Source: a virus
DNA: 64,000 nt
Strand: one strand, 5' to 3'
IMG/VR virus record: IMGVR_UViG_3300030381_000254
Location: 69,982 to 133,981 of that record
This document shows, in pieces, positions 15,501 to 56,709 of the stretch (the first letter of the stretch is position 1; each line of letters begins with the position of its first letter). The notes below the pieces were generated by a model. That model was given only the letters and a program-made list of their open reading frames with translations, was not told the origin of the DNA and searched no databases. Position numbers and translations under genes: made by a program.

Positions 15501-17675
15501 ATTTCCTTCTACTAGTTCAGGAGTATTTGTGGAAGCGTTCCAAGTACCCATAAACTTAACATTTCCTAATACAGAATCAGGAAGTTGTGAATCTGGTACT
15601 TTTCCATTATTATCAAGGGTAGCAACACCATTAGCAACTCCCATCTCAGAGCGCTTAACTTGAGCATCGTCCGTAACATTTCCAAGGCCAATGTCAGTTT
15701 TATTTAAGACAGGATTTTCAGATATCTTATAACCATTAACAGTATAATTATCTATTACTTCTTTAGTATCTTCTACGATTTCATTAATCTTATCTACTAT
15801 AGAAACGCCTTCTCCTATACCTTCGGAAAGAGTATCTAATTTCTTCTTATCTTCCTTAGACATAGTACCGTTAGCCTCTTGTGTAGCGGTAGGTAAATCT
15901 ACAGTTGCTAATTCAGTAAAATCTTTAGAAGTTAGATCATATTTCCAAGAACTTACGTCAGTAAATACTTCTCCATAGAAAGTATAAGTTCTCCACTTTC
16001 CATCCTCAGTTATTAATTTAATCTTAACTCCTGGAACTTTGTACTTACTATCAATTGTACCACTTAGTCTAGATATTGCGGATTGTAAATTCCATTGATC
16101 TTTATTATCTCCTTGTCCTTCTCCTGGAAAGAGATCAACTATATTAAATAATACTTCAGTATGTGAAATTAATTCATCTAAAGCTTCTTGAGTAGCAGTA
16201 GATATAGGTTTATCCATATCAGAAGTATTATCTACGTTTCCAAGACCAACATCTTCTTTATTTAAGACAGGATTTTCAGATATCTTATAACCATTAACAG
16301 TATAATTATCTATTACTTCTTTAGTATCTTCTACGATTTCATTAATCTTATCTACTATAGAAACACCTTCCTCTATGCCTTCAGAAAGAGTATCGAATTT
16401 CTTCTTATCTTCCTTAGACATAGTACCATTAGCTTCTTGTGTAGCTGTAGGTAAATTTGTTGTAGCTAATTCAATAAAATCTTTAGAAGTTAGATCATAG
16501 TTCCATTTAGATTCATCTAATATTTCGGAAGATTCTCCATAGAAAGTATAAGTTCTCCACTTATCTTCATTAGATAAAAATTTTATTTTAATACCTGCTA
16601 ATCTTTCTTCATCTGATAATAGTGAATCTAATTTAGATATGGCTCTAGTTAAAGTCCATTGATTCTTATTATCTCCCATTCCTTCATTAGGAAAAAGAGT
16701 ATTAATATTATAGAGATATTCTGTATGAGATTGCATTTCATCTAGATCAGACTTATACTCTTCTTTTACTTTATTATCTCCTGCATTAATGGCTTCTTGA
16801 ACCCCGCTTAATTTTAGCCCGTTTTCAGATAAACTTAAAAAATCTTCACTACTTTCGTCTCTAAGTATTCCAATAGTAGGATCATTTTTTGTTCCTTCTA
16901 TAATAATACCCTTTCCTTCTGTAGCGGTGATGCTATGAACTGTATTTTCATTTAATGAATCTATCTGATCTTTTAACTCTTTTCCTTGAGATGCTCCTAA
17001 TACTTGTTCAGATTCACCTCCTTCTAAAGAATTAATTATATCAGTTTTCTTTACATATAATTTTTCAGCATCTTCCTTCTTAAGATACGGCTCTAATTCG
17101 ATACCTAAATCATATTCTCCTAATTTCTCCCAAGCTCTAGATTCAAATCCAGCCTCATCATAGACAGTAGTAAGAATATATTCTATATATTTTTGATTCT
17201 CTCCTTCATTTTCTGTTTTTCTTAAGATATATATCTTATTAAACTTTGCTTCTTTTAAAGGAGGAAGTTCATCAACAAATATAAAAATTTCAGTATCCAA
17301 CGTACAAGAAATGATATTATCTTCTGAAATATTAATTCCTGTACCAGCTGTTAACTTATCTTGTTTTTTCTTTAATTCTTCTTGTAATTGATCTTCGGTA
17401 ACATATTCACCTAAAGAGGATTTCCAACCCTCTTCTGAATGACGATTATCCCAACTAATTAATTTATAATTAGATGCTTCACTAACTACATACCATTCTT
17501 GACCAATTGCATCATCTCCAGTATTATCTCCACTATCAGACAATATACAATCTGGTATTTTATACAAAGCTTCTAGAGATGATACAGTTTTGTGTCCTGA
17601 GATTTCTATAGCTCTCGCAATCCCATAACTTTTAGGATTATTAGACACTAATATATCTGCAAATTTTAATGCCAT
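9549..17675 (-). CDS. Giant tail fibre protein, 2708 aa, highly repetitive
   Basis: Its N-terminus is shared with fibre 5379..8090. There are more than 20 tandem copies of a ~35-aa unit NPHxVTKEQVGLGNVDNTSDxDKPVSxATQ. There are three ~185-aa repeats (…LTSKDFTELATTNLPTATQEANGTMSKEDKKKLDTLSEGI…) with near-identical DNA, and repeated …IYRWDGTDLVEIGNPIHLGE… blocks. It shares the C-terminal module with its neighbours. Confidence 0.7.
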   Translation of the reverse strand: MALKFADILVSNNPKSYGIARAIEISGHKTVSSLEALYKIPDCILSDSGDNTGDDAIGQEWYVVSEASNYKLISWDNRHSEEGWKSSLGEYVTEDQLQEELKKKQDKLTAGTGINISEDNIISCTLDTEIFIFVDELPPLKEAKFNKIYILRKTENEGENQKYIEYILTTVYDEAGFESRAWEKLGEYDLGIELEPYLKKEDAEKLYVKKTDIINSLEGGESEQVLGASQGKELKDQIDSLNENTVHSITATEGKGIIIEGTKNDPTIGILRDESSEDFLSLSENGLKLSGVQEAINAGDNKVKEEYKSDLDEMQSHTEYLYNINTLFPNEGMGDNKNQWTLTRAISKLDSLLSDEERLAGIKIKFLSNEDKWRTYTFYGESSEILDESKWNYDLTSKDFIELATTNLPTATQEANGTMSKEDKKKFDTLSEGIEEGVSIVDKINEIVEDTKEVIDNYTVNGYKISENPVLNKEDVGLGNVDNTSDMDKPISTATQEALDELISHTEVLFNIVDLFPGEGQGDNKDQWNLQSAISRLSGTIDSKYKVPGVKIKLITEDGKWRTYTFYGEVFTDVSSWKYDLTSKDFTELATVDLPTATQEANGTMSKEDKKKLDTLSEGIGEGVSIVDKINEIVEDTKEVIDNYTVNGYKISENPVLNKTDIGLGNVTDDAQVKRSEMGVANGVATLDNNGKVPDSQLPDSVLGNVKFMGTWNASTNTPELVEGNEEDNGHYYIVDVPGSQFGFDFDAGDWVINSNGSWSKVDNVDAVKSVNGKDGIVELVIEDIPNLRDELDSKASQVDLEAHTSNTENPHNVTKEQVGLGNVDNTSDMDKPISTATLDALKKLQEHSDIVYNVTSLFPGEGQGDNKDQWTIQLAISKLDSYADPKYRVPGVKCKFLDTTGVWRTYTYYGEIFADSNSWSYDLTSKDFTELATTNLPTATQEANGTMSKEDKKKLDTLSEGIDENTSIKDIVDEAVNVAKEELQGNIDTVDSKVEAHIADKSNPHQVTKEQVGLGNVTNDAQVKRAEMGIAEGVATLDESGKVPSSQLPDSVLGNVRYSGTWDASKNIPELTDNSPENSGKYYVVSIAGSQFGINFEPGDWVINNGGNWAKVDNVDAVKSVNGKSGEVVIEIADISGLTDELNSKAAQSDLDSVKELANKLNDSLAQPDGIATLDSNGKLVESQIPSKAINVLEGKYINETTFNDRSDSPYTPALGIIYVDITDGSNNNIYRWNGTAFVKLCQTGDIEQDILDHIDNKSNPHEVTKEQIGLGNVTNDAQVKRTEMGVAEGVATLDINGKIPTWQLPGQVDEVFGIDHFVDSKDQIPTSRLDTGTTYYAKLEKKIYTAISDTSLDEGKTPEKGVIYSDRDTNIIYRWDGTDLVEIGNPIHLGEIAGTAYPGDKGKETTDKVNSHLEDFENPHQVTKAQVGLGDVDNTSDVNKPVSKAQQAALDAVKDELKQNIDSNKETTDNYTINGYKISENPVLDKEDIGLSEVDNTSDLNKPISTATQEALDVLTSGLKAINDSLAQPNGIATLDSNGKLVQAQIPKEAINVLEGKYINETTFNDKQGHPYEPITGVIYVDITSGLGNKMYRWDGSIFAELNQLNDVNSKIDEHISDKNNPHGVTKEQVGLGNVTNDAQVKRSEMGALNGVATLDDNGKIPDSQLPGKVVQVFGIDHFVDSKDQIPTSRLVVGTTYYVKEDKKIYTAISDTTVDEGKTPEKGTIYSNRDTNYIYRWDGTDLVEIGNPIHLGETEGTAYEGNKGKATTDKLNEHVANTENPHNVTKAQVGLANVDNTADMDKPISTATQEALDKITSDVESHTTNKSNPHEVTKAQVGLGNVDNTADLDKPVSNATKELINSTKDSLTQTITLHTENKNNPHGVTKEQVGLANVDNTADLNKPVSIAQQAAIDKVKSEILPEVDKVNSSLTAHVSSENNPHKVTKAQIGLGNVDDTSDENKPVSLAQEARISKVESDLTAKITIHTSDKNNPHEVTKAQIGLGDVDNTRDIDKPISTATQRALDELDSRLSESVTTHIADKSNPHQVTKEQVGLSNVTNDAQVKRSEMGVASGVATLDESGKVPSSQLPSFVDDIVEADSLDEFPEVGEIGKIYLAKDTNIIYRWSGSKYVEISSSLALGETSSTAYPGDKGKATTDKLNEHVANTENPHQVTKEQVGLANVDNTSDMDKPVSTATQAAIDKVKEDLEQSIGEGSETLTSHIANKSNPHEVTKEQVGLGNVDNTADKDKPVSTAQSEAISAAKAEVTKSINDHIADVRNPHGVTKEQVGLGNVDNTSDLNKPVSNATREALSALSDSVTQIVNAHAQNYSNPHQVTKAQVGLDRVDNTNDLEKPVSNATQELVNKIKLDLTTTITSQGEILNAHVADKNNPHSVTAFQIGLGNVNNTADMDKPVSTATQIALDKKADLVDGKVPTTQLPDQVIHSLHYRGFWDADINSPKLENDLGNNAQEGDYYIVRGQGVRFGYEFLPYDIIFNAYGTWYRLSGSNQRDEVTRFDITSFTADKYECEIGENATIKFNWEYNGLGEGENPESQNINGNVAEPASRTLSITDVLADTTFVLSAGYRGISASAELQVKFYSKVYVGTSTNNTVSDSELQAMTSFFDNEKNSLPLTKLDCTGGKYIYVAIPKVNATNYTIYANNILVTDVVETSRNVVNASGGKAEYTIYRLSNKYNGILNIEVKLNK
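11700..13700 (-). repeat. Tandem array of ~105-nt (35-aa) NPHxVTKEQVGLGNVDNTSD fibre repeats
   Basis: A recurrent DNA motif recurs, ...cctaaaccaacttg(t/a)(t/g)ctttcgttac(t/c)ccatgaggatt.... More than 20 peptide repeats are visible in the translation. Confidence 0.65.
14640..16750 (-). repeat. Intragenic ~185-codon repeats in the giant fibre gene, three copies
   Basis: The DNA is near-identical at about 16255..16515 and 15700..15960, for example ...tttcagatatcttataaccattaacagtataattatctattacttctttagtatcttctacgatttcattaatcttatctactatagaaac.... A third copy lies around 14790..14960. Confidence 0.7.
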
Positions 17676-24785: not shown

Positions 24786-25368
24786 TTTCAGTTACGAATA
24801 TACCGATTCGATACTCGATATCATCTTCTTTCTTATAATTAACAAATTGATGAAATATTCTATAATATCCATCATCTTCTCTTTGAATAAGATGCGCATC
24901 CCATCCATGAGTAGTTGTTAATTTATCGATTAAATCTTGTAATCTAGATATTTTAGGAGCGTATTCTTTTAATACTTCTATATCTTGAGAAGGATCCATA
25001 AATTCTTTTAATCTTGCAAGTTCTTTATTGGATTCTTCTTCATTCATTATGTCGCTAGTAAACTCAGTTAATTTATACTGCTTAATATCACTAGTACTTT
25101 TAATAGTATTTAGAAATTGTCCTGCTATTTTCTTACTAGAAATTTCAGCAATAACAGCATTATACTCATCCTTAGAGGATATGATATTTCTCATATCCTC
25201 TAATACTTTCATAGATGTAGTAATGCCTAAACTAACAAATACTCCAAATGGTTTAACAAATGTATTCCCATCAACTGAATTTACATAAAATGTTTTAAAT
25301 GCTGGTTGATAAAACACTTCAACCAGTGAATGAATTTTATCTCTATTTATGTTTCCATTAGTAGCCAT
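24763..25368 (-). CDS. Hypothetical protein, 201 aa
   Basis: ORF only. Confidence 0.35.
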   Translation of the reverse strand: MATNGNINRDKIHSLVEVFYQPAFKTFYVNSVDGNTFVKPFGVFVSLGITTSMKVLEDMRNIISSKDEYNAVIAEISSKKIAGQFLNTIKSTSDIKQYKLTEFTSDIMNEEESNKELARLKEFMDPSQDIEVLKEYAPKISRLQDLIDKLTTTHGWDAHLIQREDDGYYRIFHQFVNYKKEDDIEYRIGIFVTENESKGVN

Positions 25369-27085
25369 AACTATTTTTAAAATTTTTTACTTTGAAATAT
25401 TTAAAATTTTGATTATAATTACTAGAGCCATAATTAAATCCATACATAGTATATTCTGGCATCTTAGACTCTTCTTCATGCCATTCTTCCAAGTAATCTT
25501 CAAAATCTGAGATAAGAATCAATATAGCTTCTGGCCCATAATTATCTCTAAAGTATTTTATACCTCTAGCCATTCTTGTTCCACCTCCCATAGATATACG
25601 AGGAACACCTTTTCTTGGATTAATGTTCTTTATGTGCTCACCTAAACAAGTAGACCAAGATATAATATTGTAAGTAAGACCTCTTCCAAGTCGTTTCATC
25701 TTACTAGCAATAGTATTAAGTATTCTATCTACAAGTCTAGTATCCATAGATCCTGACACATCTATTAAAAATACAATAGTAGGATCATTTGAAATAGTAA
25801 CTTTTCTTCTAATAGTTGGAGTAATAACACTTCTATTAATCCCCCTATTATACATATACATTAAATCTTTTTTTGTATCTACTTTTACTACTCTAGATTT
25901 ATAGTTCAACATAACTTCATCTAGAGCCATATCTACTTCATCAGTATCTGTTACTACTCTAGTAGCATCCGGACCACCTGAATTTCCACATCCAACTCCA
26001 CCACCAGAACGAATTTGTCCTAGCTCTCTCTTTTTATCTGCATCATCTCTAGAATCTGTTCCGTGGTCTCTATGAGTTCCTCCTTTATTATTTCCATTAG
26101 GATCTAACTCATTTGTTCCAGAATCTCTATTCCCTTTATATGGACAATCCCTAGGTGTTTTTTGTCCTTGACCATTACCATTTCCAGAACCAGAAGACAT
26201 ACCCATTTCTTCCATCAAATCAGATAGTCCTTGCATTCCTCCTCCTTGAGAAGAACCTCCATCTCCACTACCTAATGCATTCTGTACATCTTCAGCAGTT
26301 ATATTAGAAGTATCTCCATTTCCTCCATTCTTAATTGATACTAGCATCTTAACAAATTGATCTAAGTGCATAATAATCAACATAAGATATTCTGAATAAG
26401 AACGTTCTTTTGGAAATGGTGTAGGATCTGGTAATGCATTATCTAGATGATATCTCTCTGGAATAATTAATTTAATTTTTGTTTCATTCTCCATTTTCTT
26501 GAGAGCTTCATCTATTTGTTTTTTCACTTCTTCATCATCAGTGTGATCTCTCTGATATCTTAATAATTCTGCTTGATAATCCGGAAGTTTTTCTGAAATA
26601 TCTTTCTCCATTTCTTCAATATCATCTTTAGATAATATCTTAGAATTTACTTCCATATCCATAGCTATATTATGAATACTGTGATTTAATACAGGATCAT
26701 CAATTACTCTTTCAATAAGCTTATCCGCAAAATCAATCCCACACTCTTTATTAATTCTATCTATAAGCTCTCCTCTATGATCTCTGAAAGCATTACAGAT
26801 CTGAACATCTAACTCTTCGTGAATTCCATCCAAATGACCCAAATATATATGACCATATTCATGCATAAGTACTCTAAAATCAGTTCTTGGAATTCCTATT
26901 TCAGAACACACTATCTTATAAGTTACGTATCCAGTAGAATCATCTTTATATTTATAACAATATCCTAATTCTGGATTATCTGGATTAAATGGTTTTTCTG
27001 TATTAACCATTAATAAATTTCCAAATCTGCAATAAGTGTTGTCTACAAATCTTTTTATAAACTCTAATTCTGATTGAGTTCTCAT
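25358..27085 (-). CDS. VWA-domain protein with N-terminal HExxH putative metallopeptidase domain (DUF2201-like), partner of the MoxR ATPase
   Basis: The N-terminal LMHEYGHIYLGH is an HExxHxxxxH motif. The middle has a Gly/Ser/Asn/Asp-rich low-complexity linker. The C-terminal VFLIDVSGSMDTRLVDRILNTIASK is a VWA MIDAS motif (DxSGS). Confidence 0.65.
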   Translation of the reverse strand: MRTQSELEFIKRFVDNTYCRFGNLLMVNTEKPFNPDNPELGYCYKYKDDSTGYVTYKIVCSEIGIPRTDFRVLMHEYGHIYLGHLDGIHEELDVQICNAFRDHRGELIDRINKECGIDFADKLIERVIDDPVLNHSIHNIAMDMEVNSKILSKDDIEEMEKDISEKLPDYQAELLRYQRDHTDDEEVKKQIDEALKKMENETKIKLIIPERYHLDNALPDPTPFPKERSYSEYLMLIIMHLDQFVKMLVSIKNGGNGDTSNITAEDVQNALGSGDGGSSQGGGMQGLSDLMEEMGMSSGSGNGNGQGQKTPRDCPYKGNRDSGTNELDPNGNNKGGTHRDHGTDSRDDADKKRELGQIRSGGGVGCGNSGGPDATRVVTDTDEVDMALDEVMLNYKSRVVKVDTKKDLMYMYNRGINRSVITPTIRRKVTISNDPTIVFLIDVSGSMDTRLVDRILNTIASKMKRLGRGLTYNIISWSTCLGEHIKNINPRKGVPRISMGGGTRMARGIKYFRDNYGPEAILILISDFEDYLEEWHEEESKMPEYTMYGFNYGSSNYNQNFKYFKVKNFKNSYGY

Positions 27086-27189: not shown

Positions 27190-28716
27190 TTATTTAAAAC
27201 CTCTAATTTCAGGTACTATAGATGCAAGAGCTGGATCTTCCTGTAAAATAATCTTACGGAAAGATTTCAATCTAAATCCAGCTACCTTCAAGTCTTCTTG
27301 AGTAGACTTAAGTGTAGATACTGAATTATCTTTATTTCCATAACCCTTAGTAGAATCCATAACTAATTCTTGCATTGATGTCATAAGGTCTGCTAAAACA
27401 TTCCAATAAGTAACGTAACCAATAAAAGTATCTGAAGATATTTTATCTAAGAACTTATCTGTCGGTGCCATCTTAATCTTGCTAATGCTAGATCCAGAAG
27501 CTTTGCAAATCTTAAACATCTTTTCAATACATTCAGGATCAATAGGACGTTCAATAGAGTTAATTTCCTTATCTCCCTTCAATTCAGAAAGCTTATTAAT
27601 AATAGCCTGCATTTCAGGAATTTGGAACTGAGTCTTTCCATCTACTATGTCATTGAAGAATTTAGTATATTTAGGTAACTTATCATTCTTCATCTTCTCA
27701 ATATCATTAACGATATTAACCATAGTATCATAGAACTCTTTTGAAATTGGAGTTTTAATAACATTCTTAGAGGATTTATCTCTAGAAATACCAATTCCAC
27801 AAAGACCATCAATCATATTTCTATAATTATCACTAGTAATACCAGCTTTTCCAAAACATTTGAAAGAAGCTATAGTTACATCTCTAAGATAATTAAGAGT
27901 TCTGAATGTAACGAATCCATAAAGTTTAGTTTCATTCTCTGCATCTGAATATAATCCTTGAAGATCTGTAATAGCCAAATCTACTACTTTAGATCCAGAA
28001 GTCATAAGAGATTTTGCGGTCATTTTAATACCTCGTTCGATATATTCACCAATCTTATTATACTGATCTTCTGAAATATCTTGTTCTTGAGCATCCAGCT
28101 TTTTCATGGTCTTTCTCAAGTTTTCCATGTAATTATTTGTCTTTCCTTCAGAAGATGCTATAGCTCCTTCATACTTACATAAGAATGTATCCAAATCGTT
28201 ATAATCAGGAGTTATATTAAATATCATAAAACGGTTCATTAATGGAGGAAGCATCTGCATTGAATTAGAAAGATTCTGTGCATAGTTACCTGCAGACACA
28301 ATCAATGTATTTTCAGGCAATTTTTCACTTCCTACCTTACGTTCAAAAACTAAATGTAACAACGCAGACTGAACGTACTCGTTTGCAGTTGTAATTTCAT
28401 CCAAAAATAACAAACTTTTACCACCCTTTTCTGCAATATCACGAATTTCAGTATACCATGATGGGCGAAGATGTTTAGTAGTCTTTGATTCTGGATTATC
28501 ATTATCCACTACATCATATCCCATTACTTCTTCAGCAGTAGTACTATTACCTCTAAGAAGTACTAGATTATATCCTCTAACTTCAGCAAACATTTCTACT
28601 GAAGTTGATTTACCCAAACCTGGATTAGACATAATCAATACAGGTACTTTACTAGTTTCGCTAACTTTTAATGCTGTAAAAATTTGAACATTAATAGAAT
28701 CATTTTTCTTTGCCAT
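27190..28716 (-). CDS. MoxR-like AAA+ ATPase (AAA_5 / CbbQ / GvpN-type)
   Basis: Walker A is SNPGLGKST and Walker B is LLFLDEIT. Sensor-like SAGNYAQN is present. It lies immediately upstream of the VWA protein, the classic MoxR-VWA arrangement. Confidence 0.65.
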   Translation of the reverse strand: MAKKNDSINVQIFTALKVSETSKVPVLIMSNPGLGKSTSVEMFAEVRGYNLVLLRGNSTTAEEVMGYDVVDNDNPESKTTKHLRPSWYTEIRDIAEKGGKSLLFLDEITTANEYVQSALLHLVFERKVGSEKLPENTLIVSAGNYAQNLSNSMQMLPPLMNRFMIFNITPDYNDLDTFLCKYEGAIASSEGKTNNYMENLRKTMKKLDAQEQDISEDQYNKIGEYIERGIKMTAKSLMTSGSKVVDLAITDLQGLYSDAENETKLYGFVTFRTLNYLRDVTIASFKCFGKAGITSDNYRNMIDGLCGIGISRDKSSKNVIKTPISKEFYDTMVNIVNDIEKMKNDKLPKYTKFFNDIVDGKTQFQIPEMQAIINKLSELKGDKEINSIERPIDPECIEKMFKICKASGSSISKIKMAPTDKFLDKISSDTFIGYVTYWNVLADLMTSMQELVMDSTKGYGNKDNSVSTLKSTQEDLKVAGFRLKSFRKIILQEDPALASIVPEIRGFK

Positions 28717-30276: not shown

Positions 30277-31115
30277 AAAAATGATGTTAATTTAAATTCA
30301 TTAATTACATATGAGATAGAAAAATTGTATAATAAATAATCATATTGAGAATTCCACATTCTTTTTTCTAAGTCTTTTATTAATAACTTAACCGTTTCTA
30401 TATCAGAATTAAAAAATTTATCTAAAAATTCTTTAAATTTAATAGAATCATACCCAGAAAATTCACTAAGTAAATTTTGAATAATATAAAAATTAGATTT
30501 ATTTTGATTTTCTTTATCCTTAGATAAATTCAAAATCTTTTTAAATTTTATATTCAATAAATCCTGATTATTCTGTATTTTTTCAGGAAATTCTATCAAA
30601 GGAAATAATCTTATAGTAGATAAATTAAACTCATCATAAAGATATGAATCCCTAATTGAATCTTTTTTTATCTGAAGACTAGTCTTTTGATGAAATTTTT
30701 TAGAATCAGCTTCTAAAATTAATCCACCACTAAGAATAAAATCTACATATATTACTTTTCGATAAAAAAACTCATCGTCATCAGTTATGTCATTAGCAGT
30801 ACATAAAGATTCCCACTTTTCTCTATTAGAAATCACTATTGGATATTCACTTAAATACTTAATTTTAAATCTATCCAATAAATTTTCTAAAAGAAGTTCA
30901 TTATTATTTTTTTCTCTTTTAGTTAATTGAGAATTCCTCCTAGAAACGATATTGCATTTAATCATGTCTTTATAAACAATTATAGGAATTGGTAAATAAA
31001 AATCATTTGATTTACTAGATACTATATCGAAATTAAACGAGAGTACATCTGAAAGTAATAATATTTCGCTAAAATATTTATTAATTTTTTCTAAATTCTT
31101 TTCATAATTATTCAT
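30273..31115 (-). CDS. Protein with C-terminal DUF559-like (Vsr/PD-(D/E)xK-type) endonuclease domain
   Basis: VIYVDFILSGGLILEADSKKFHQ...KDSIRDSYL... fits the DUF559 pattern D...LxIExDGxxH...D..RDxxL. Confidence 0.4.
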   Translation of the reverse strand: MNNYEKNLEKINKYFSEILLLSDVLSFNFDIVSSKSNDFYLPIPIIVYKDMIKCNIVSRRNSQLTKREKNNNELLLENLLDRFKIKYLSEYPIVISNREKWESLCTANDITDDDEFFYRKVIYVDFILSGGLILEADSKKFHQKTSLQIKKDSIRDSYLYDEFNLSTIRLFPLIEFPEKIQNNQDLLNIKFKKILNLSKDKENQNKSNFYIIQNLLSEFSGYDSIKFKEFLDKFFNSDIETVKLLIKDLEKRMWNSQYDYLLYNFSISYVINEFKLTSFL

Positions 31116-31199
31116 AGTATTATTTTTATAAAGTATGACACAACTACATACTTTTTATTACATTATTAAGTATTTACCCTGATTATCACCGCGTTTTAA

Positions 31200-31230
31200 A
31201 CCTTAAAATTCTTATAAATGAACTATGTTT
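31200..31230 (+). promoter_or_regulatory. Promoter-like motif variant upstream of flotillin-like gene
   Basis: aaaccttaaaattcttataaatgaactatg is one mismatch from the CTTATATATGA core. Confidence 0.4.
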
Positions 31231-31249
31231 AATTTAAAATTAATAATTT

Positions 31250-32758
31250 ATGATTAGTACTTTTATTTTAATCGGAATTATTGTTCTGATTCTAGTAGTT
31301 ATTGTGTTAGTTTCTTATGTAAAAGCACCTCCAAGTCAAGCTTTTATAATCTCAGGTTTAAACAAAAATCCTAGAGTTCTTATCGGTAAAGGAGGATTTA
31401 GATTGCCATTCTTTGAACGATTAGATAAAATCTATCTAGGACAAATTACTGTAGATATAAAAACGGAAACTTCTGTTCCAACTAATGACTTTATTAATGT
31501 AGATGTAGATGCAGTAGCAAAAATTAGAGTAAAACCTACAGATGAAGGAATTAGATTAGCTGGAAAAAACTTCCTTAATATGAAACCTTTAGATATTGCA
31601 AATCAATTGCAAGATTCTCTTCAAGGAAATATGAGGGAAATTATAGGAACTCTTGAACTTAAAGAACTTAATACTAATAGAGATGGATTCTCTGATCAGG
31701 TAATGGAAAAAGCTGCTCCTGATATGGAAAAATTAGGTATTGAGATATTATCTTGTAATATTCAAAATATTACAGATAGAGAAGGGTTAATAAAAGATTT
31801 AGGTGCTGATAATACTTCTAAAATAAAAAAAGAAGCAGCTATTACTAGAATAACTGCTGAAAAAGAAATTAGCATAAAAAGTAGTCAGGCAAATAAAGAA
31901 GCTAATGATTTTAAAGTAGAATCTGAAATGAGGATAGCTGAAAAAAATAATGAACTATCTCTCAAAAAATCAGACTTAAAACTAAAAGAAGATGCTAAAA
32001 AAGCAGAAGCTGATACCGCTTATGAGATACAAAAACAAGAACAGCAAAAAATAATTAATACTAAATCTGTTGAAGCTGAAATTGAAAAAACGAAGAAACA
32101 ACAGATTCTTAGTCAAGAACAAATTATAATTCGTGAAAATGAATTAAAAGCTGAAATAAATAAAAAGGTAGAAGCTGAAAAATATAAAACCGAAAAAGAA
32201 TCTGAGGCAGAAAAGTATAAAACTGAAACTGAAGCAAAAGCAATTCTGGAACAAAGAAAAAGAAATGCTGAGGCTGAAAAATACGAAACAGAACAAAAAG
32301 CAGAGGCTATGAAAGCTGAAGCAGATGCCATTAGATACAAATTAATCCAAGAGGCAGAAGGTATAAAAGCAAAAGGTGAAGCAGAAGCTTATGCAATTCA
32401 ACAAAAAGGTATAGCTGAAGCAGAAGCTATGAAACAAAAAGCAGAAGCTTATAAATTATATAATGGTGCTGCTGTTGCTGAAATGATGATAAAAATACTT
32501 CCAGAAATGGCAGCAAATATTGCTAAACCTATGGAATCTATTGATTCTGTAAATATCTATGGTACTAATGGTAATGAGGTTTCTGGAGTAACTGGTAATA
32601 TTCCAGTAATAGTTAAACAAGTATTTGATACTATGAGTCAAGCTACTGGAGTAGATATGAAAGAAATACTGAAAACTGGTACAATAGAAGCCGCTACCAC
32701 TAGAAATATTAATATCTCTAAAGATATTGATGAACTAAAGGATAATATTGTAAAATAA
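31250..32758 (+). CDS. Flotillin-like SPFH/Band-7 protein with E/A-rich coiled-coil repeats
   Basis: An N-terminal TM helix is followed by an SPFH-like domain (IISGLNKNPRVLIGKGGFRLPFFERLDKIYLGQITVDIK...). Next come tandem AEAEKYKTE / EAEAMKQKAEAY repeats, as in flotillin EA repeats. The DNA-level tandem repeats lie at about 32160..32460. Confidence 0.65.
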   Translation: MISTFILIGIIVLILVVIVLVSYVKAPPSQAFIISGLNKNPRVLIGKGGFRLPFFERLDKIYLGQITVDIKTETSVPTNDFINVDVDAVAKIRVKPTDEGIRLAGKNFLNMKPLDIANQLQDSLQGNMREIIGTLELKELNTNRDGFSDQVMEKAAPDMEKLGIEILSCNIQNITDREGLIKDLGADNTSKIKKEAAITRITAEKEISIKSSQANKEANDFKVESEMRIAEKNNELSLKKSDLKLKEDAKKAEADTAYEIQKQEQQKIINTKSVEAEIEKTKKQQILSQEQIIIRENELKAEINKKVEAEKYKTEKESEAEKYKTETEAKAILEQRKRNAEAEKYETEQKAEAMKAEADAIRYKLIQEAEGIKAKGEAEAYAIQQKGIAEAEAMKQKAEAYKLYNGAAVAEMMIKILPEMAANIAKPMESIDSVNIYGTNGNEVSGVTGNIPVIVKQVFDTMSQATGVDMKEILKTGTIEAATTRNINISKDIDELKDNIVK

Positions 32759-32764
32759 ATAAAA

Positions 32765-32797
32765 TAGAGGGATAAAATTATCCCTCTATTTTTTCTT
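32765..32797 (+). terminator. Rho-independent terminator after flotillin-like gene
   Basis: Hairpin tagagggataaaattatccctcta followed by tttttt. Confidence 0.7.
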
Positions 32798-32856
32798 CTC
32801 TAAAACTCTTATAGATGAAAAGAAAATAATTAACTTTATAAATATTTTAATAAATT

Positions 32857-33606
32857 ATGAAAAATTTAAAAGATACAATTTTTATTCACTATGGAACAAA
32901 TAAAATTAAAGAGAAATTATTTAAAACAATAAAGAATAGAAGAGGGTGGAATAAACCAAGTGGAGGAATATGGGCTTCTCCACTAAACTCTAATCATTCT
33001 TGGAGAAAATTCTGTTTGGATGAAAATTTCAATATCGGAACTTTAAAGAAACATATATTATTTAAAATAAATCCTAACAGTAAAATATATACCATAGATT
33101 CTTATCTAGATCTTATTAAGTTAAAAAAATATTGGATCTATGATAAAAATAGAATATTTAATGAAGTTATGATAGATTATGAGAAGATGATGAAAGATGG
33201 ATATGATGGAATATATCTTACTGAAGATGGGGAACATGATACTAGATTTTCTCCATATGGCAGGTATGACTGTAGTATGGGTGGAAAGTTAGATCTGTAT
33301 GGATGGGACTGTGAGAGTATTGTGATATTTAACAAAAATATTATAAAACAAATCAAAAGAAAAAGATTAAAACTTTCCAAAAGAAATTATAAGAGACAAT
33401 CAATAATTATAAATACACAAAAATCAAATAATATTAATAACCCTGATATATTAGAATGGGATAGAAATGAATTAATGAATAATACCATATTTATACCAGG
33501 GAAGAACTATAAATCTAAGAAAGCATATTATAGAGATATAGAAAAAATATTATATGAAACTGAAGATGATCCATCAAGAATAGTAAAATTATATGGAGGA
33601 AAATAA
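32857..33606 (+). CDS. Hypothetical protein, 249 aa
   Basis: ORF followed by a strong bidirectional terminator. Confidence 0.4.
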   Translation: MKNLKDTIFIHYGTNKIKEKLFKTIKNRRGWNKPSGGIWASPLNSNHSWRKFCLDENFNIGTLKKHILFKINPNSKIYTIDSYLDLIKLKKYWIYDKNRIFNEVMIDYEKMMKDGYDGIYLTEDGEHDTRFSPYGRYDCSMGGKLDLYGWDCESIVIFNKNIIKQIKRKRLKLSKRNYKRQSIIINTQKSNNINNPDILEWDRNELMNNTIFIPGKNYKSKKAYYRDIEKILYETEDDPSRIVKLYGGK

Positions 33607-33609
33607 AAA

Positions 33610-33645
33610 CAAGGAAGAGGATTAATCCTCTTCCTTGTTTTCTTG
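33610..33645. terminator. Bidirectional rho-independent terminator between convergent genes
   Basis: A perfect palindrome caaggaagaggattaatcctcttccttg is flanked by an A-run upstream and a T-run downstream. Confidence 0.7.
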
Positions 33646-35742
33646 TTCTACATAATTATTTGCTACTAGTAAATTATTATATTCTAACTGATAGTAAGGT
33701 TTAACTGATATTAACTCTAATCCATCTAATCTCTTACCATTATTTGAAATTTTACATTTCTTAACTTCAAAATATTCTCCTAAATCAATAGCTTTTGGAG
33801 TTGCTTTATAGTTAATAGAACTGTAAAGATTAGTAAGAATATTCTTTATATCTGTATTTGGAATTTTATCACCTATCTTAAAATTTTGAAATATAGTCTT
33901 AACTAGTAATTCTTTATTAAATACTACTACTCCTAATTCTCTTTCAATATATGTTCTATTATATCCAAGAGATTTTAATCTGTCAGGTTTTAATGTAGTG
34001 TAATAAGATCTAATATTATCATGTTCCCCTATTTGCTCTAATGCAATACTTCTAGCTTCATCGGACATATCATATTCACAAAGTAATCTAAGTTTATCTT
34101 TAAATAAAGATAGTCGATCGTATTTATAAAAAAATGCTTCAATTTCTTGATTTACTGAATATCCTATATCTAACTTTTCATTTATAGTACTAAATACAGT
34201 AAATCGATCTGCATAATCATACTGTTGTATTTCAAATACTCTAAGATCGTTTACTTTAACTAAATTATTAAATGTTGGAAATAATCCGGTACCTCCATGA
34301 GTATTTACTGAAACATAATTATCTTTATAATTTGCAGATTTAGCTACATATTGATAAGTTAAAGCTAGTGTAGATTTTGAAGATTCGGTATCACATCTTT
34401 CATACGCATACAATAAATCTTTAGTAGCTTTTTCTTTTCTCTCTATCTCCTTCATAAACTCCTCTTGCGAAACTTTTCTATAATCCGCAGTTACTCTATA
34501 AAAAAATTCGGCGGAATTTTTCCACGGATTTTCAGATTTTCTTTGACGTCCTAAGATTTGTGGAAGATCATCACTTATATCTACTGCTAATGTATCTAAA
34601 TTAGCGTCACTGAATATAAAAGTTCTTGCACAATAACTATCAAAATCAGCTCCTAGATAAACCGTTGAAGTACAAAATGTAAACATTGGAAAACTCTCTC
34701 CTTTTTCAATAATAGGTACATGTCCTATACTAAAAAATTTTCCTAATTTCTTCCTTATTTTCTTTTTATTATCTTCTGTCTTAGCACATAATATTAATAC
34801 TTGATCTGAACTTAAATTACATTTTTTGATAATACTAATAATATGATTTACAGAATTCATAAATAATACTGCTTCCCTAGACTCTATTTCTACTGGGAAA
34901 CCATTAATAATTCTAGTAGCCCTTTCAAAATTTCCATTAAGATAAGATTGTATAATTTCTCCTGCTTTAGTACCTACGGATTTCATTGTTCTTACCTTAA
35001 GAGAAGGTTTAATAACTCTAGTAAAATCTTCAGTTAACCAATCTAGTTCTATATATGGAAGACCATCAAATTCATCTAACATATTCAAATATTTATCTAC
35101 CATTGGTGTAGCTGAGACAAATATAGCTGAATGAGATTTCTTAAGATATCCTAAAAATTCGTTCTCAGTATTACTCTTAAACCTAGAATCATGTAAGATA
35201 CTTTGAAATTCATCTATTATTGTATAGAAAGTATCAAACTTACCTAGAGCAATTAAAATATCTTGTACTATCCTATAAGAATCGTACGTAACTAAGATTT
35301 TATAAGGTTTACCGTAGAAATCTCTCATATTAATATAATCTTTAATTTCTCTCATTAATCGATTATATATATCTTTTTTTCTTTGATTAGGATCAATACA
35401 ATCTTTAAGCTTTTCCTCAAATATATCTCCACTGGACATCTGAGTAAATTTATCTAATTTACTCAAATCTTTATCAATTCCTGGATCAGAATCCAATAAC
35501 TCATTTTTTACTAAATAAACATCCTTGTCATGTTTACTATATTTACTGTCAAGAAGAGCTATTCTAGGACTACATAATATACAATTTTCTATTCCATTAA
35601 TTACTCTTTCTGTAAAACCACAACCAGGAATTTGTTTATTTATTATACATTTTGGTGGTAATTTATAAAAGAAAAAATCTTTCCAATCACTTAAAAATCT
35701 AATTCCTCCTGGTACAATCCAAGATTTTAATTTATTTATCAT
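33622..35742 (-). CDS. SF2 helicase-like protein with atypical Walker A, 706 aa
   Basis: Motif I-like IPGCGFTE has no Lys. DEFQ resembles the motif II DExx box. FVSATP resembles the motif III SAT. It is oppositely oriented within the plus arm. Confidence 0.4.
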   Translation of the reverse strand: MINKLKSWIVPGGIRFLSDWKDFFFYKLPPKCIINKQIPGCGFTERVINGIENCILCSPRIALLDSKYSKHDKDVYLVKNELLDSDPGIDKDLSKLDKFTQMSSGDIFEEKLKDCIDPNQRKKDIYNRLMREIKDYINMRDFYGKPYKILVTYDSYRIVQDILIALGKFDTFYTIIDEFQSILHDSRFKSNTENEFLGYLKKSHSAIFVSATPMVDKYLNMLDEFDGLPYIELDWLTEDFTRVIKPSLKVRTMKSVGTKAGEIIQSYLNGNFERATRIINGFPVEIESREAVLFMNSVNHIISIIKKCNLSSDQVLILCAKTEDNKKKIRKKLGKFFSIGHVPIIEKGESFPMFTFCTSTVYLGADFDSYCARTFIFSDANLDTLAVDISDDLPQILGRQRKSENPWKNSAEFFYRVTADYRKVSQEEFMKEIERKEKATKDLLYAYERCDTESSKSTLALTYQYVAKSANYKDNYVSVNTHGGTGLFPTFNNLVKVNDLRVFEIQQYDYADRFTVFSTINEKLDIGYSVNQEIEAFFYKYDRLSLFKDKLRLLCEYDMSDEARSIALEQIGEHDNIRSYYTTLKPDRLKSLGYNRTYIERELGVVVFNKELLVKTIFQNFKIGDKIPNTDIKNILTNLYSSINYKATPKAIDLGEYFEVKKCKISNNGKRLDGLELISVKPYYQLEYNNLLVANNYVEQENKEED

Positions 35743-36098
35743 AATTTATATTTATTTATTACAGAATCCAGTTAAATTGTCTTATTTTTATGAAGTCAAA
35801 GGAGTTTCCCTTTAACTCAATTGTAAGGATAATAAGTTATAATAAACGTATTTTGTCGATTTTATTGAGATAATTTTAACCATATTCTAATATAAGATAG
35901 TTATTGAAAGAAATTCGACACCTTTTCCTTTCTTTCCCTCCTTTCAATGGGAGGGAAAGAATCAATTTTAATAGAATAATTTCCTATAACACTTTATAGG
36001 GTTTCATTCAAGTTTAAAAGGAAAAAAGTAGAAGGGCTAACGCCTTTGTCTTCAGAAATAAAGGACAAAAATAAATAAGTAAGATTAGTTAATCTTAC

Positions 36099-36350
36099 TT
36101 ATGAAAAAGTTACGATGATAAATCCGATATATAAATATATTAAGATACTTAATATATAAAAATCTCTCATTATTTTAGATTCTTTTAAGTACATACCTAT
36201 ACTATTATCATCGATAGAACTCTTTAAATTACATAATGTATTTATTGAACTACTGTTCTTTATTAAAATTCCGATTAAAAGAACAGTAAACCAAACTGCT
36301 ATACCTGGAAATAAAAATAAACCTTCCAGATTATTCATAAATTTTCTCAT
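36099..36350 (-). CDS. Small membrane protein, 83 aa
   Basis: Two hydrophobic helices. The promoter-like motif lies upstream on the minus strand and a terminator hairpin lies downstream at 36078..36097. Confidence 0.4.
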   Translation of the reverse strand: MRKFMNNLEGLFLFPGIAVWFTVLLIGILIKNSSSINTLCNLKSSIDDNSIGMYLKESKIMRDFYILSILIYLYIGFIIVTFS

Positions 36351-36388
36351 ATATTTAAATTAAAGTTATTGTATTCTTTAAAAGTTTA

Positions 36389-36415
36389 TCTTTCATATAT
36401 AAGGCTTTGAAGGAA
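36389..36415 (-). promoter_or_regulatory. Conserved phage promoter-like motif on minus strand
   Basis: The reverse complement reads ccttcaaagccttatatatgaaaga, about 40-65 nt upstream of the minus gene 36099..36350. Confidence 0.5.
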
Positions 36416-36571
36416 TAATAAAAGAAAGAAAAAATTAGCACCGTTTTCACAAACAGTGCTAATCATAATTTGATAATATCGAACTTAATTGCTTTAGACG
36501 ACAATTTTACTAATTGTCTTTAACTATGTCCATTTATAAGGATTTTAAGGGTTTTAAATTATAATAGTTTA

Positions 36572-38534: not shown

Positions 38535-38792
38535 ATGAAAGTATTACAATCAAAAGTTTTAGTACAAGTAGATAACGATCAATTACAACAGAAGCTTGGT
38601 AATTTTACAGTTCCTGTAGAAGATATTGAGAAAGCTACTGTTATCGAGGTTGGAAATGAAGTTAATAAAGATGGAGAGATTTTAAAGCCTGGGGATAAGG
38701 TGTATATTTATCCAAAATCTGGAAAGGAATTCATGGAAAACGGAGAGAAATATCGTGTTATTACTTTAAATGAAATTATTGTAGTATTGTAA
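38535..38792 (+). CDS. groES: Co-chaperonin GroES / gp31-like
   Basis: 85 aa, KVLVQV...TVIEVGNE...GDKVYIYPKSGKEF...YRVITLNEIIVVL. It lies directly upstream of the GroEL homolog. Confidence 0.65.
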   Translation: MKVLQSKVLVQVDNDQLQQKLGNFTVPVEDIEKATVIEVGNEVNKDGEILKPGDKVYIYPKSGKEFMENGEKYRVITLNEIIVVL

Positions 38793-38812
38793 AATTTAAA
38801 ATTATTAGAAAA

Positions 38813-40438
38813 ATGGCAGAAGGAAAAAAAATTATTAAAGGAGCTGAATCACGTGAGAAAGTAATTAGTGGTGTTATCAAGATTGCAGATGCAGTAAAAA
38901 CAACTATTGGTCCCGCAGGAAAACATGTAGTAATTGCTAACAGTATGACTGGTCCTGAAATTTCTCGAGATGGTAGTATTGTTAGTAAATCTATATCTTT
39001 TAAAGATCAAGAAGAAAATATTGGAGCTCAGATTGTTCGTAAAGCAGCTGCAAGTACTGAAGATCAAGCTGGTGATTCAACCTCAACTACAGTAGCTCTC
39101 ATTGAAGAAATGGTGATTAAAGGTCAAAAAGCAATTCGTACTGGAGCTAATGTAAATGAAATTAAAGATGGTATGAAGAAAGCTCAGAAATGGGTTACTA
39201 ACTATATTGCTAAGAATTCTATTAAGGTAGATGGTGATCTTAATAAAATTCATAAGGTAGCAACAATTTCTGCTAACAATGATTCTACTATTGGAGATCT
39301 AATAGTATCATGTATGGAAAAAATCGGAACTGATGCAGAAATTCAAGCAGATTATTCTTCTGGTATTGATACGACTATTGATATTGTTCAAGGGTTTAAA
39401 CTTACTAAAGGATGGTCTAGTCCACAGTATGTAAATAGTCCGTCTGATGCAAAATGTGTAATGGAAAATCCATACATTATAGTAGTTGGAGAGAATATTA
39501 GTAATTTCAATCAGGTAGGTCCTATTATCGAACCTTTATGTAAAAGTGGTCGTCCTTTCTTGATTGTATGTAATGATATGTCTGATCAGGTAAATGGTAT
39601 TTTTATTCTTAATACTCTTCAAGGAAATATTCGTTGTTGTGTAGTTAAAGGAGTAGACTTTGGAGATAATAGAAAAAATATTATGGCGGATTTAGCTGTA
39701 TTTACTGGTGGAACATATTTGGATCCAGAAAATGGAATTTCAATCAATCAGGCTACATTAGAGGATTTTGGTACAGCAAATAAAGTTGTAGTATCTAGAG
39801 ATTCTTGTATTATCTATGAAGGAAATGGAGATAAGAGTATTATTAGTGAAAGAATTGAAACTTTGAAAAATCGAATTTCTGATCCTGACATTAGTGATTA
39901 CGATAAGAAGAAATATAGCTCTAGATTATCTCAATTAGCTGGGGGTATTGGATTAATTAAAGTTGGTTCTGCTAGTGAAATTGAAAGGGCAAATTTAAAA
40001 GCAACCGTTGAAGATGCTATTTTGGCATCTAAGAGTGCTTTGGCAGAAGGTTGTTCTCTCGGATCTGGATATACTTATTTCAAAGCATCACTTGAATTGG
40101 CTAAAGATAAGGAGTTCTGGAAAACATTGGTTGATGATGAGATTGAAGGAGCAAAAATTCTTCAAGAATCATTGCCAATTATTATGAAATCCGTAGTAGA
40201 AAATTGTGGAGTATCTCCTGATGTAGTATTAGAAAAGATTAAAACATCTAAACCTGGTGTAGGTTTCAATGCAAAAACAAAGAAGTATTGTAATCTTGAA
40301 GAAGAAGGTGTTTTAGATTCTTCTAAAGCATTAAGAGTAGCACTCGAAAATAGCGTATCTGCTGCATCTATGATATTATTGATTGATTGTACAGTTGTAG
40401 ATGAAGAAGATAAAAACGAAGATAATTTAATTAAATAA
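38813..40438 (+). CDS. groEL: Chaperonin GroEL-like, 541 aa
   Basis: The N-terminus KIIKGAESREKVISGV...TIGPAGKHVVIA...GDSTSTTVALIEE matches the GroEL ATP-binding motifs. It lacks the C-terminal GGM repeat. Confidence 0.8.
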   Translation: MAEGKKIIKGAESREKVISGVIKIADAVKTTIGPAGKHVVIANSMTGPEISRDGSIVSKSISFKDQEENIGAQIVRKAAASTEDQAGDSTSTTVALIEEMVIKGQKAIRTGANVNEIKDGMKKAQKWVTNYIAKNSIKVDGDLNKIHKVATISANNDSTIGDLIVSCMEKIGTDAEIQADYSSGIDTTIDIVQGFKLTKGWSSPQYVNSPSDAKCVMENPYIIVVGENISNFNQVGPIIEPLCKSGRPFLIVCNDMSDQVNGIFILNTLQGNIRCCVVKGVDFGDNRKNIMADLAVFTGGTYLDPENGISINQATLEDFGTANKVVVSRDSCIIYEGNGDKSIISERIETLKNRISDPDISDYDKKKYSSRLSQLAGGIGLIKVGSASEIERANLKATVEDAILASKSALAEGCSLGSGYTYFKASLELAKDKEFWKTLVDDEIEGAKILQESLPIIMKSVVENCGVSPDVVLEKIKTSKPGVGFNAKTKKYCNLEEEGVLDSSKALRVALENSVSAASMILLIDCTVVDEEDKNEDNLIK

Positions 40439-55728: not shown

Positions 55729-56709
55729 AGTAAACCGTCAACCTTCATTACATGAGTATAGTACTTTTGCAATGAAGTTAAGAATTCATGAGGATTATAC
55801 AATACATTTTCCTATTCAAGTATGTGAACCATTAAATGCTGACTTTGATGGTGATACTGTATCAATACAGTTAGTTCCGCCTGAAGCAGCTGAAGAGACT
55901 TATGAAAGAATGAGTCCTAGATATGTTACAATTTATAAAAAGAATAATGAACCTATTTATAAATTTAATCACGAAACACTTAATGGTTTAGCAGTTGCGA
56001 CTGAATATTCATACTCTGATTTGGAAGAATTGAAAGATCCTAAATATTTTTATACTGATTATGTTCAGTTATTAAAGGATGTAGAAATAGAAAAGAAAAT
56101 CAAAGTTGGAACACCGATTGTATTTACAGGAAAAATAGGGAATGTAGATTATCAATCTAAAGTTACAAGTTATGGTAGACTTCGTATTTCTAAAATACTT
56201 GATGCTGATATAGATAAAATTGGTATATTTAGTAATGAGTTTGAACGTATTAGTGCTAAGAGTGCAGCTAAGTTAAGTCTTTATTTAAATCAATTCGAAG
56301 ATGGAGTTGAAAAGAGAAAAGCACTTACTAAATTTGCTCTTCGCGTAGTTAGCATGGCTGGAGTAGTAACGTTTGATTATAAAACACTGTATGCTGATTG
56401 TGATACGGAGACTTATAAGAGAATTTGTAACGTAGCAGATTCTAAAGAACTTACAGATAAACAGAAACTTTTGATAATGACTCAAGAATTTAAGAAATAT
56501 GAGGACGAAGTTTCTGCAAGTTTTAGTTCTGATTTGAAAAATGAACTTGATAGAGCAGCTCGTGTTAAATTATCATCTATTGTAGCAATGTCAATGCCAC
56601 AGTTTATAACTTCAGGAGTTGATGAAAAACCTGTAATTACTCGTGGAACATTGTTATCTGGTTACACAGAGAAAGATTATCAATTACATGCAATAGAAAA
56701 TCGAAGCTT
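55729..56709 (+). CDS. rpoC: RNA polymerase beta' subunit, exon 2 (catalytic NADFDGD region); 3' end approximate
   Basis: VNRQPSLHEYSTFAMKLRIHEDYTIHFPIQVCEPLNADFDGD aligns to E. coli NRAPTLHRLGIQAFEP...NADFDGD. A bridge-helix-like SGY motif lies near the end. The exon end was chosen at the U at 56709, 70 nt upstream of the P element, the same spacing as in intron 1. Confidence 0.6.

Follow-up and report, generated by a model that had tools for sequence, protein, structure and literature searches.

A full-length flotillin of apparent Bacteroidales ancestry encoded by a gut jumbo phage

We analysed a 64,000-nucleotide (nt) window of viral DNA (positions 69,982 to 133,981 of IMG/VR record IMGVR_UViG_3300030381_000254), in which an open reading frame (ORF) at 31250..32758 on the plus strand encodes a 502-residue protein. 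Judged by its sequence and domain order, this product is a genuine flotillin with the architecture of FloT (YuaG) from Bacillus subtilis. The window is jumbo phage DNA, and sequence comparisons trace the gene to the Bacteroidales, pointing to an old transfer followed by purifying selection. Our overall reading, put forward tentatively, is that gut jumbo phages, most likely of the Jug (jumbo gut) group, took a working FloT-type flotillin from a Bacteroidales host long ago and have kept it for a role in membrane homeostasis. A previous sequence-only reading of this ORF had proposed a phage-encoded flotillin-like SPFH protein with an N-terminal hydrophobic segment, a Band-7-type domain and tandem E/A repeats, and we refer to it below where our results bear on it. 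The gene and its protein features are as follows.

31250..32758, plus strand: flotillin-family gene, an ORF of 502 residues, stop codon included
31253..31315 (residues 2-22), plus strand: N-terminal hydrophobic membrane anchor, a predicted transmembrane helix or re-entrant hairpin containing Gly9 (Kyte-Doolittle hydropathy; helix 2-22 in the AlphaFold2 model)
31322..31861 (residues 25-204), plus strand: SPFH / Band 7 domain (PF01145, E = 1.9e-22; alpha/beta fold at residues 23-176 in the AlphaFold2 model)
31787..32173 (residues 180-308), plus strand: first long helix, the predicted helical-barrel wall of the flotillin cage (AlphaFold2; collinear with human flotillin-1 to about residue 310; wall described in PMC11260169)
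32168..32464 (residues 307-405), plus strand: about nine degenerate 11-residue (33-nt) E/A repeats (autocorrelation, Tandem Repeats Finder, copy spacing)
32381..32641 (residues 378-464), plus strand: Pfam Flotillin domain, reaching from the last part of the second helix into the beginning of the C-terminal oligomerisation region (PF15975; aligns with flotillin-1 residues 311-438)

Domain architecture of the phage flotillin

Residues 2-22 are hydrophobic, with a 19-residue Kyte-Doolittle mean of up to 3.4, compared with 1.6 or less for every other segment of the protein. Two Pfam domains scored above their thresholds: Band_7 (PF01145) at residues 25-204 with 80.6 bits (gathering cut-off 23.6), which places the protein in the SPFH superfamily, and Flot (PF15975) at residues 378-464 with 38 bits (cut-off 27), which is the domain of the flotillin family. 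The position of the ORF, its N-terminal hydrophobic segment and its SPFH/Band-7 domain were thus as the sequence-only reading had described them, and the profile checks it had suggested, against PF01145 and the flotillin model, both came out positive. The SPFH domain is the most conserved portion of a 40-sequence alignment of the family. Residues 196-410 form a helical stretch rich in glutamate, alanine and lysine, these three accounting for 113 of its 215 residues. Minus-strand ORFs lying within the repeat region (e.g. 32113..32340) were set aside as a side effect of the E/A codon repeats.

The protein has the length of bacterial FloT-type proteins and shares with B. subtilis FloT the layout of a PHB/SPFH domain followed by a flotillin domain. 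It aligned end to end with the NCBIfam FloT model (NF058507; residues 6-475 against positions 4-473 of 477), scoring 261 bits against a curated equivalog cut-off of 700. Because of this shortfall, we describe it as having the same architecture as FloT but not as the B. subtilis FloT equivalog.

E/A repeats in the helical region

The sequence-only reading had placed tandem repeats of about 45 nt here, within an E/A tract of about 120 residues. A repeat tract is present, and so are the quoted motifs (three copies of AEKYKTE/AEKYETE, plus EAEAMKQKAEAY), together with AEAEKY, AEAEAM and GEAEAY, but both the period and the length require correction. Autocorrelation of the protein peaked at a lag of 11 residues (z = 6.2 against shuffled sequences), with further signal at lags 22 (z = 4.6) and 33 (z = 3.1). 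At the DNA level, lags of 33 nt (z = 4.6) and 66 nt (z = 3.9) stood out, compared with z = -1.3 at 45 nt. Tandem Repeats Finder reported a single weak array, of period 33, at 32350-32441, and the direct-repeat copies, spaced 33 and 66 nt apart, are 64-78% identical to each other. The period is therefore 33 nt, or 11 residues, and the clearly periodic tract spans about 99 residues (307-405, positions 32168-32464) rather than 120, comprising about nine degenerate 11-residue units. Taken as a whole, the earlier description needed changing in these two respects only.

The lag-11 signal and the motifs correspond to the A/G-E-A/G-E repeats that characterise the helical wall in the flotillin family. 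The same 11-residue period appeared in homologues from Prevotellaceae, Bacteroides, Butyrivibrio, divergent viruses, Vibrio phage KIT04 and human flotillin-1 (z = 4.6-7.2, values somewhat inflated as they are sliding-window maxima), with no signal at lags 7 and 15 in those bacterial, viral, KIT04 and human proteins. Since the period is shared across the family, we regard the repeat as an old structural feature and not as a recent DNA expansion or an assembly artefact. An artefact had been named as a finding that would refute the earlier reading, and it is ruled out by the recovery of the identical 502-residue protein in 56 assembly-collection blocks from independent samples. Parallel helices bearing A/G-E-A/G-E repeats make up the right-handed barrel that walls the solved flotillin cage (PMC11260169), an arrangement that the 11-residue repeat fits.

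Comparison with solved flotillins and other SPFH proteins

We built an AlphaFold2 monomer model from the 40-sequence alignment. It comprises a helix at residues 2-22, an α/β SPFH fold at 23-176, a 129-residue helix at 180-308 and, after a short break, a 111-residue helix at 319-429, followed by the C-terminal region. Foldseek searches of the PDB with this model returned the two solved flotillin complexes, 9l3g and 9bq2, as top matches (E ~1e-21 over 425-456 columns; 9l3g_A at E = 1.6e-21 over about 450 columns). Next came HflK/C(-FtsH), stomatin, prohibitin, QmcA, erlin and major vault protein, and the SPFH-domain structures 1win, 3bk6 and 4fvj were matched with TM-scores of 0.65-0.82 normalised to the target. 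Sequence searches of solved structures agreed, with near full-length best matches to human flotillin-1 (E = 2.4e-55) and flotillin-2 (E = 1.1e-48) and more distant ones to QmcA and an archaeal stomatin. With phmmer, residues 26-330 and 367-492 aligned to 9l3g_A, so the protein is collinear with a flotillin over its full length. The Pfam domains, the FloT-model alignment, the flotillin-1 alignment and the fold matches all uphold the proposal of a phage-encoded flotillin-like SPFH protein.

Human flotillin-1 and flotillin-2 (9bq2, 9l3g) are thus its best sequence and fold matches among solved structures and share its E/A repeats and 11-residue period. Identity to flotillin-1 is about 27%, however, and the phage protein carries about 36 additional residues in the helical region (residues 331-366, about three repeat units). 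The alignment revealed no equivalent of the phage N-terminal helix in the human flotillins, which attach to the membrane through a hydrophobic SPFH1 surface with covalent lipids (PMC11260169). The human proteins form a closed dome-shaped cage, a hetero-oligomer of 22+22 subunits (PMC11260169), whereas only one flotillin gene was seen in the phage window. At its N-terminus the phage protein more closely recalls B. subtilis YuaG/FloT, which has a hairpin membrane anchor with a glycine at position 10 and a cytoplasmic bulk (PMC4312047). The anchor of the phage protein may likewise be of the hairpin type, since Gly9 occupies a nearly equivalent position.

The contig is jumbo phage DNA

The genes of the window include tail-fibre proteins, an HNH endonuclease and a DNA-ligase-like protein, and most of them belong to no known family. 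A 2,708-residue protein (9549-17675, minus strand) consists of many repeated modules of tail-fibre or minor-tail type, matching 53 PHROG families in up to 18 stretches each. A chaperonin pair lies on the plus strand, with a GroES-like gene at 38536-38793 and a GroEL gene at 38813-40438 whose product matches phrog_5725 over its full length (E = 2.9e-121). Also on the plus strand, an RNA polymerase beta'-like gene (55772-56773, a weak fragment match) and a beta-like gene (59037-62225) are separate, as in jumbo phages that carry RNA polymerase. We found no tRNA gene and no Rfam match in the whole 64-kb window; in the parts of it that were scanned, no capsid (major capsid protein, MCP), portal or terminase (large subunit, TerL) gene was identified.

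At least 56 assembly-collection blocks contain the identical 502-residue protein; the contigs bearing it come from independent samples, measure 94, 188, 257 and 371 kb and share its neighbouring genes. The flotillin gene is identical on two contigs of the largest size, one of 370,915 bp and one of 370,971 bp. The larger is a single contig in GTDB (CASEGV010000001.1), labelled 'uncultured Mycoplasmatota bacterium', with the gene at L037:5001-6509; it looks like a mis-binned jumbo phage genome that serves there as the representative of a bacterial species. Such an entry can mislead taxonomic profiling.

That label lends some support to a different account, in which the gene is the own flotillin of a small bacterial genome, a recent and decaying passenger, or part of an assembly chimera, and the failure to identify capsid, portal or terminase genes in the scanned parts of the window points the same way. 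Set against this are the tail fibres, the 2,708-residue fibre-repeat protein, the phage GroEL, the RNA polymerase beta gene, the predominance of ORFans and the lack of tRNA and rRNA genes in 64 kb. In addition, the contig of about 371 kb recurs in independent assemblies, with an identical protein in 56 blocks, and the codon composition and selection described below (a third-position GC content of 0.125, which fits a phage and not the Bacteroidales, and dN/dS of 0.08-0.17) also count against it. We consider a cellular or non-functional origin extremely improbable, and the idea of a cellular gene or decaying passenger is effectively ruled out. The phage context claimed by the sequence-only reading is confirmed by the tail fibres, the phage-type GroEL, the RNA polymerase beta gene, the absence of tRNA and rRNA genes and the recurrent contig of about 371 kb.

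Jug phages have genomes of 360-402 kb with 27-30% guanine-plus-cytosine (GC) content, and their predicted hosts are Bacteroides and Phocaeicola (PMC12880540). They contribute about 1.1% of human gut metagenome reads (PMC12880540). Contigs of about 371 kb and a window GC content of 28.5%, which lies between the Jug group means of 27% and 30%, fall within these ranges; from size, GC content and gene types, the phage is a probable member of the Jug group. A near-identity DNA search with the gene and its surrounding 24 kb found no match among 50,697 phage records.

Bacteroidales ancestry and purifying selection

We scored 7,991 homologues. The closest fell into two groups: a small set with 68-74% identity on phage-like contigs, several of 379-389 kb, and a large set with 63-67% identity from Prevotellaceae, Alistipes and one Bacteroides metagenome-assembled genome (MAG). 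In a neighbour-joining tree, the window protein and the phage-contig proteins formed a single clade (bootstrap 86.5%), which was sister to the chromosomal copy of the Bacteroides MAG (L101; bootstrap 92.5%); the placement of the whole group among Bacteroidales flotillins was weakly supported (45%). We considered whether L101, labelled 'Bacteroides sp.', might be a mis-binned phage fragment and rejected this because its neighbours (DcaP porin, CBM9, ICMT and GAGBD) and its GC content of 53% are bacterial.

The Bacteroidales flotillins (Prevotella/Segatella, Alistipes and the Bacteroides MAG; e.g. Segatella buccae ATCC 33574, L084) measure 490-501 residues and are 63-68% identical to the phage protein over the full length. 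They share its order of anchor, SPFH domain, E/A helices and Flot domain as well as the 11-residue period, and at the two loci examined the gene likewise stands alone, with no NfeD neighbour. The phage copy differs in its location on a phage of about 371 kb, in its longer tree branches and in its GC content at third codon positions (GC3), which is 0.125 in the window gene and 0.19-0.27 in the sister phage lineages, compared with 0.48-0.75 in bacterial orthologues. The phage copies have fully taken on the base composition of phages.

Nei-Gojobori ratios of nonsynonymous to synonymous substitution (dN/dS) between phage lineages ranged from 0.08 to 0.17, values that are approximate because dS (1.2-1.7) is near saturation. 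Among 339 alignment columns at least 95% conserved in the bacterial proteins, the phage clade retained 221, and at 46 such positions the bacterial residue was replaced across the clade. Many of these replacements, such as R to K and D to E, are conservative and of the kind that AT-biased drift would yield. We did not use the observation that differences among loci with the exact protein were all synonymous, since those loci had been retrieved by exact protein identity and the argument would be circular; dN/dS between diverged lineages was used instead. Together, the phage-like GC3, the low dN/dS and the retained columns indicate that the transfer from Bacteroidales was old and that selection has kept the gene in phages.

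Given this similarity to the bacterial proteins, we asked how well the data accord with molecular mimicry, whereby a phage protein about 65% identical to that of the host would co-assemble with host flotillin and poison or re-purpose its membrane microdomains. SPFH cages often combine paralogues in a hetero-oligomer (Flot1/2, HflK/C, PHB1/2, Erlin1/2), the phage clade is closest to a Bacteroides chromosomal copy, and the clade-specific substitutions occur in the helical wall and C-terminal region, the parts involved in subunit contacts. On the other hand, protein searches, cluster names and the literature did not establish a flotillin in the predicted hosts, Bacteroides and Phocaeicola; the named nearest cellular homologues are from Prevotellaceae (including cultured Segatella and Hoylesella), the exceptions being single MAGs of Alistipes and Bacteroides. 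That the whole length is under purifying selection also suggests an intact, self-sufficient protein, and we regard mimicry as very unlikely.

Flotillins and SPFH proteins in other viruses

Dozens of further large phages from gut and rumen have similar genes. In IMG/VR, two pattern-limited scans, giving 27 and 30 loci, yielded about 50 distinct contigs with a flotillin of 43-58% identity, most of them longer than 50 kb and several of 300-415 kb. Both Band_7 and Flot were detected in all nine viral metagenomic homologues tested. A single IMG/VR sample, 3300045988, contributed at least 17 viral contigs of 94-305 kb (L135-L151, L156) whose flotillins are 51-57% identical to that of the window; they look like another abundant group of large phages carrying the gene. 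One homologue with 56-58% identity (P0005, 770 residues, on a 75.7-kb metagenomic contig) is about 270 residues longer than the family, which suggests fusion to an additional domain.

Among deposited phage records, 10 of 50,697 gave a tblastn match, and the only annotated one was T5-like Vibrio phage KIT04. Its 'flotillin family protein' is flotillin-sized (473 residues) and has the 11-residue period, but it matches the SPFH part only, at 25% identity, and Pfam did not detect a Flot domain in it. In BFVD, short SPFH/Band-7 proteins are annotated in several phages and many giant viruses, and just one entry matched at full flotillin length, with 473 residues, the same as the KIT04 protein. Rhizobium phage Pasto, Streptomyces phage StarPlatinum, Vibrio phage pVa5 and giant viruses are already catalogued as carriers of Band-7/SPFH proteins, which differ from the window protein in being mostly short (250-330 residues) and of stomatin or HflC type.

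Neither the flotillin family and its architecture nor the occurrence of SPFH proteins in viruses is therefore new. In the literature searched, we found annotation-level mentions only and no functional study of a phage-encoded flotillin or SPFH protein, nor did we find a report of a full-length flotillin across prevalent gut jumbo phages, of its Bacteroidales ancestry or of its long maintenance under selection. The Perkons paper was considered as a precedent for a phage flotillin and rejected, as the phage described there integrates into the host floA gene.

Gene neighbourhood

The flotillin gene is flanked by the following elements.

31116..31249, plus strand: upstream intergenic region of 134 nt between a divergent 280-residue gene and the flotillin gene (ORF map, sequence)
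32761..32802, plus strand: intrinsic terminator with a 14-bp stem, 4-nt loop and T-run, 3 nt past the stop codon, also readable on the minus strand (terminator scan, sequence)

The terminator scan found 5 terminators where 0.8 ± 0.9 were expected by chance, and the flotillin gene looks like a single-gene transcription unit. Its promoter presumably lies within the 134-nt upstream region. A scan for the sigma-70 consensus, which does not cover Bacteroidetes-type or phage RNA polymerase promoters, gave 16 sites against 17.7 expected; as this is no more than chance, no promoter was assigned. Together with the next gene (32857..33606, 249 residues), the flotillin gene forms a small plus-strand island between minus-strand blocks.

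Neither adjacent gene (280 and 249 residues) contained a Pfam domain, NfeD included, and extending the search to five further neighbours likewise revealed no NfeD match, so the locus is not an SPFH-NfeD module. The sequence-only reading had been right to note that no NfeD partner is adjacent. B. subtilis floT lies in an operon with the NfeD-family gene yuaF, and the phage gene differs from it in this respect. The missing neighbour is not a peculiarity of the phage, since it is also missing at the two Prevotellaceae loci examined: the Segatella buccae orthologue lies between ABC-transporter genes and unannotated ORFs, and a common Prevotella orthologue is flanked by mnmE and a nucleoside phosphorylase gene. 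Phages of the clade have the flotillin gene in at least four different neighbourhoods.

A stand-alone gene of this kind, with its own terminator, variable neighbourhoods and a strand island, behaves like an accessory gene, and its recurrence in many unrelated large phages (about 50 IMG/VR contigs and KIT04) is the pattern to be expected of accessory genes for host interaction. The sequence-only reading had suggested that a phage copy might remodel host membrane rafts or interfere with membrane-associated defence. Both features would suit a weapon in conflict, a cage that shields the membrane from abortive-infection effectors or blocks the entry of competing phage DNA (superinfection exclusion). 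PADLOC, however, returned no defence-model match for the flotillin or the adjacent genes, its only hits being marginal ones to the AAA and VWA neighbours (E = 0.002-0.009). The literature searched contained no paper linking SPFH proteins or flotillins to exclusion or anti-defence, and the conservation of the protein closely tracks the housekeeping bacterial family (63-68% identity). We therefore judge a function in conflict to be quite unlikely.

A possible role in the host membrane

Other genes of Jug phages include a pspA-like gene, terD genes and one for a Ca2+-exporting P-type ATPase, which are related to host genes and apparently exchanged with Bacteroidales (PMC12880540). Viewed beside this repertoire, a role in membrane homeostasis would be the most economical reading of the phage flotillin. 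The protein would be made after infection from its own single-gene transcription unit, and its N-terminal hydrophobic helix or hairpin would insert in the host inner membrane, leaving the remainder in the cytoplasm, a topology suggested by homology to YuaG/FloT. By homology to solved cages, subunits of this one protein may then self-assemble into a large closed dome, the flotillin cage, with the SPFH domains resting on the membrane. The right-handed barrel wall would consist of the long E/A-rich helices of 11-residue period, packed side by side, and the C-terminal region would close the roof. Each cage would thereby fence off a patch of membrane. Cages of this kind may keep the host membrane fluid, intact and energised through the long infection of a jumbo phage, perhaps also organising membrane proteins, and the flotillin could act alongside the reported membrane and stress genes (pspA-like, terD and the Ca2+ P-type ATPase).

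Alternatively, the cage might act as a scaffold or regulator, enclosing a specific client such as a host membrane protease, the Jug Ca2+-ATPase or the lysis machinery and controlling its activity or the timing of lysis, much as HflK/C does with FtsH. The next-best fold matches, HflK/C-FtsH, prohibitin, erlin and stomatin, are all cages that enclose clients; Jug phages encode membrane proteins of their own; and the 46 lineage-specific substitutions could reflect adaptation to a new client. Many of those substitutions are conservative, though, as expected from AT-biased drift, no neighbouring gene is conserved in any of the four phage contexts, and in the window the flotillin gene adjoins no gene for a protease or membrane protein. 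A dedicated client is in our view unlikely.

More speculatively, and with a rather low probability, the flotillin might build membrane compartments specific to the phage, either alone or co-assembled with host flotillin, that sequester host proteases or defence effectors or that organise phage membrane machinery (the Ca2+-ATPase, the PspA-like protein or lysis proteins). If so, jumbo phages would have a means, not recognised before, of dividing the infected cell into compartments at its membrane.

Returning to the proposal of a FloT-type flotillin kept by Jug phages for membrane homeostasis, several observations weigh against it. Bacterial SPFH proteins do not all share one orientation; HflK/C, for example, faces the periplasm, and the cytoplasmic placement proposed here is taken over from FloT. 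The homeostatic role itself is argued by analogy and from the reported gene repertoire of the phages. Membership of the Jug group follows from a circumstantial match in size, base composition and gene types, and the main text of the Jug paper makes no mention of flotillin or SPFH (PMC12880540). The replacement across the phage clade of 46 residues at least 95% conserved in bacteria, a further difference from the Bacteroidales flotillins, could mean that the function has changed. No conserved partner emerged when all 67 window ORFs were compared by tblastn with every flotillin locus, as nothing was shared near the gene. The confidence of the AlphaFold2 monomer is moderate (predicted local distance difference test, pLDDT, 66; predicted template modelling score, pTM, 0.34), which is what one would expect of a subunit whose order depends on its being part of a large oligomer.

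The molecular identity of the protein is clear and unsurprising, and its biological role is testable. Flotillins are conserved from bacteria to humans, and what they do in bacteria is a matter of continuing debate. The full-length copy described here is under purifying selection in one of the most prevalent groups of human-gut phages, which implies that the cage gives a direct fitness benefit in infection. The phage gene thus offers a natural gain-of-function setting for asking what cages do to a bacterial membrane, and it joins the pspA-like, terD and Ca2+-ATPase genes, as a membrane organiser, in the set of membrane and stress genes that Jug phages have derived from their hosts.

Other features of the window

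The flotillin island lies inside a transition, at about 31000-36500, from a long minus-strand block to a long plus-strand block; GC skew changes sign in the same interval, and the cumulative skew has its minimum near 36 kb. Downstream of the island, a strong bidirectional terminator-like hairpin with a 16-17-bp stem (33606-33641) separates the convergent genes for the 249-residue protein and a 706-residue protein. The 706-residue ORF (33622-35742, minus strand) is replaced by ORFs of about 371 and about 721 residues in isolates L006 and L009, where DNA identity in this region is 81-85% compared with 96-99.8% in the flanks; the gene is mosaic, hypervariable or interrupted. On the other side, about 2.5 kb from the flotillin gene, a MoxR-like AAA_5 ATPase gene (25358-27085) adjoins a VWA_CoxE gene (27190-28716) in a classic MoxR-VWA chaperone pair, both genes lying on the minus strand, opposite to flotillin. 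Further downstream, a 351-residue ORF (46817-47872, plus strand) showed a sub-threshold match to an actin/MreB-like C-terminal domain (PF21522, 25.7 bits against a threshold of 27.8) and may encode a phage cytoskeletal protein.

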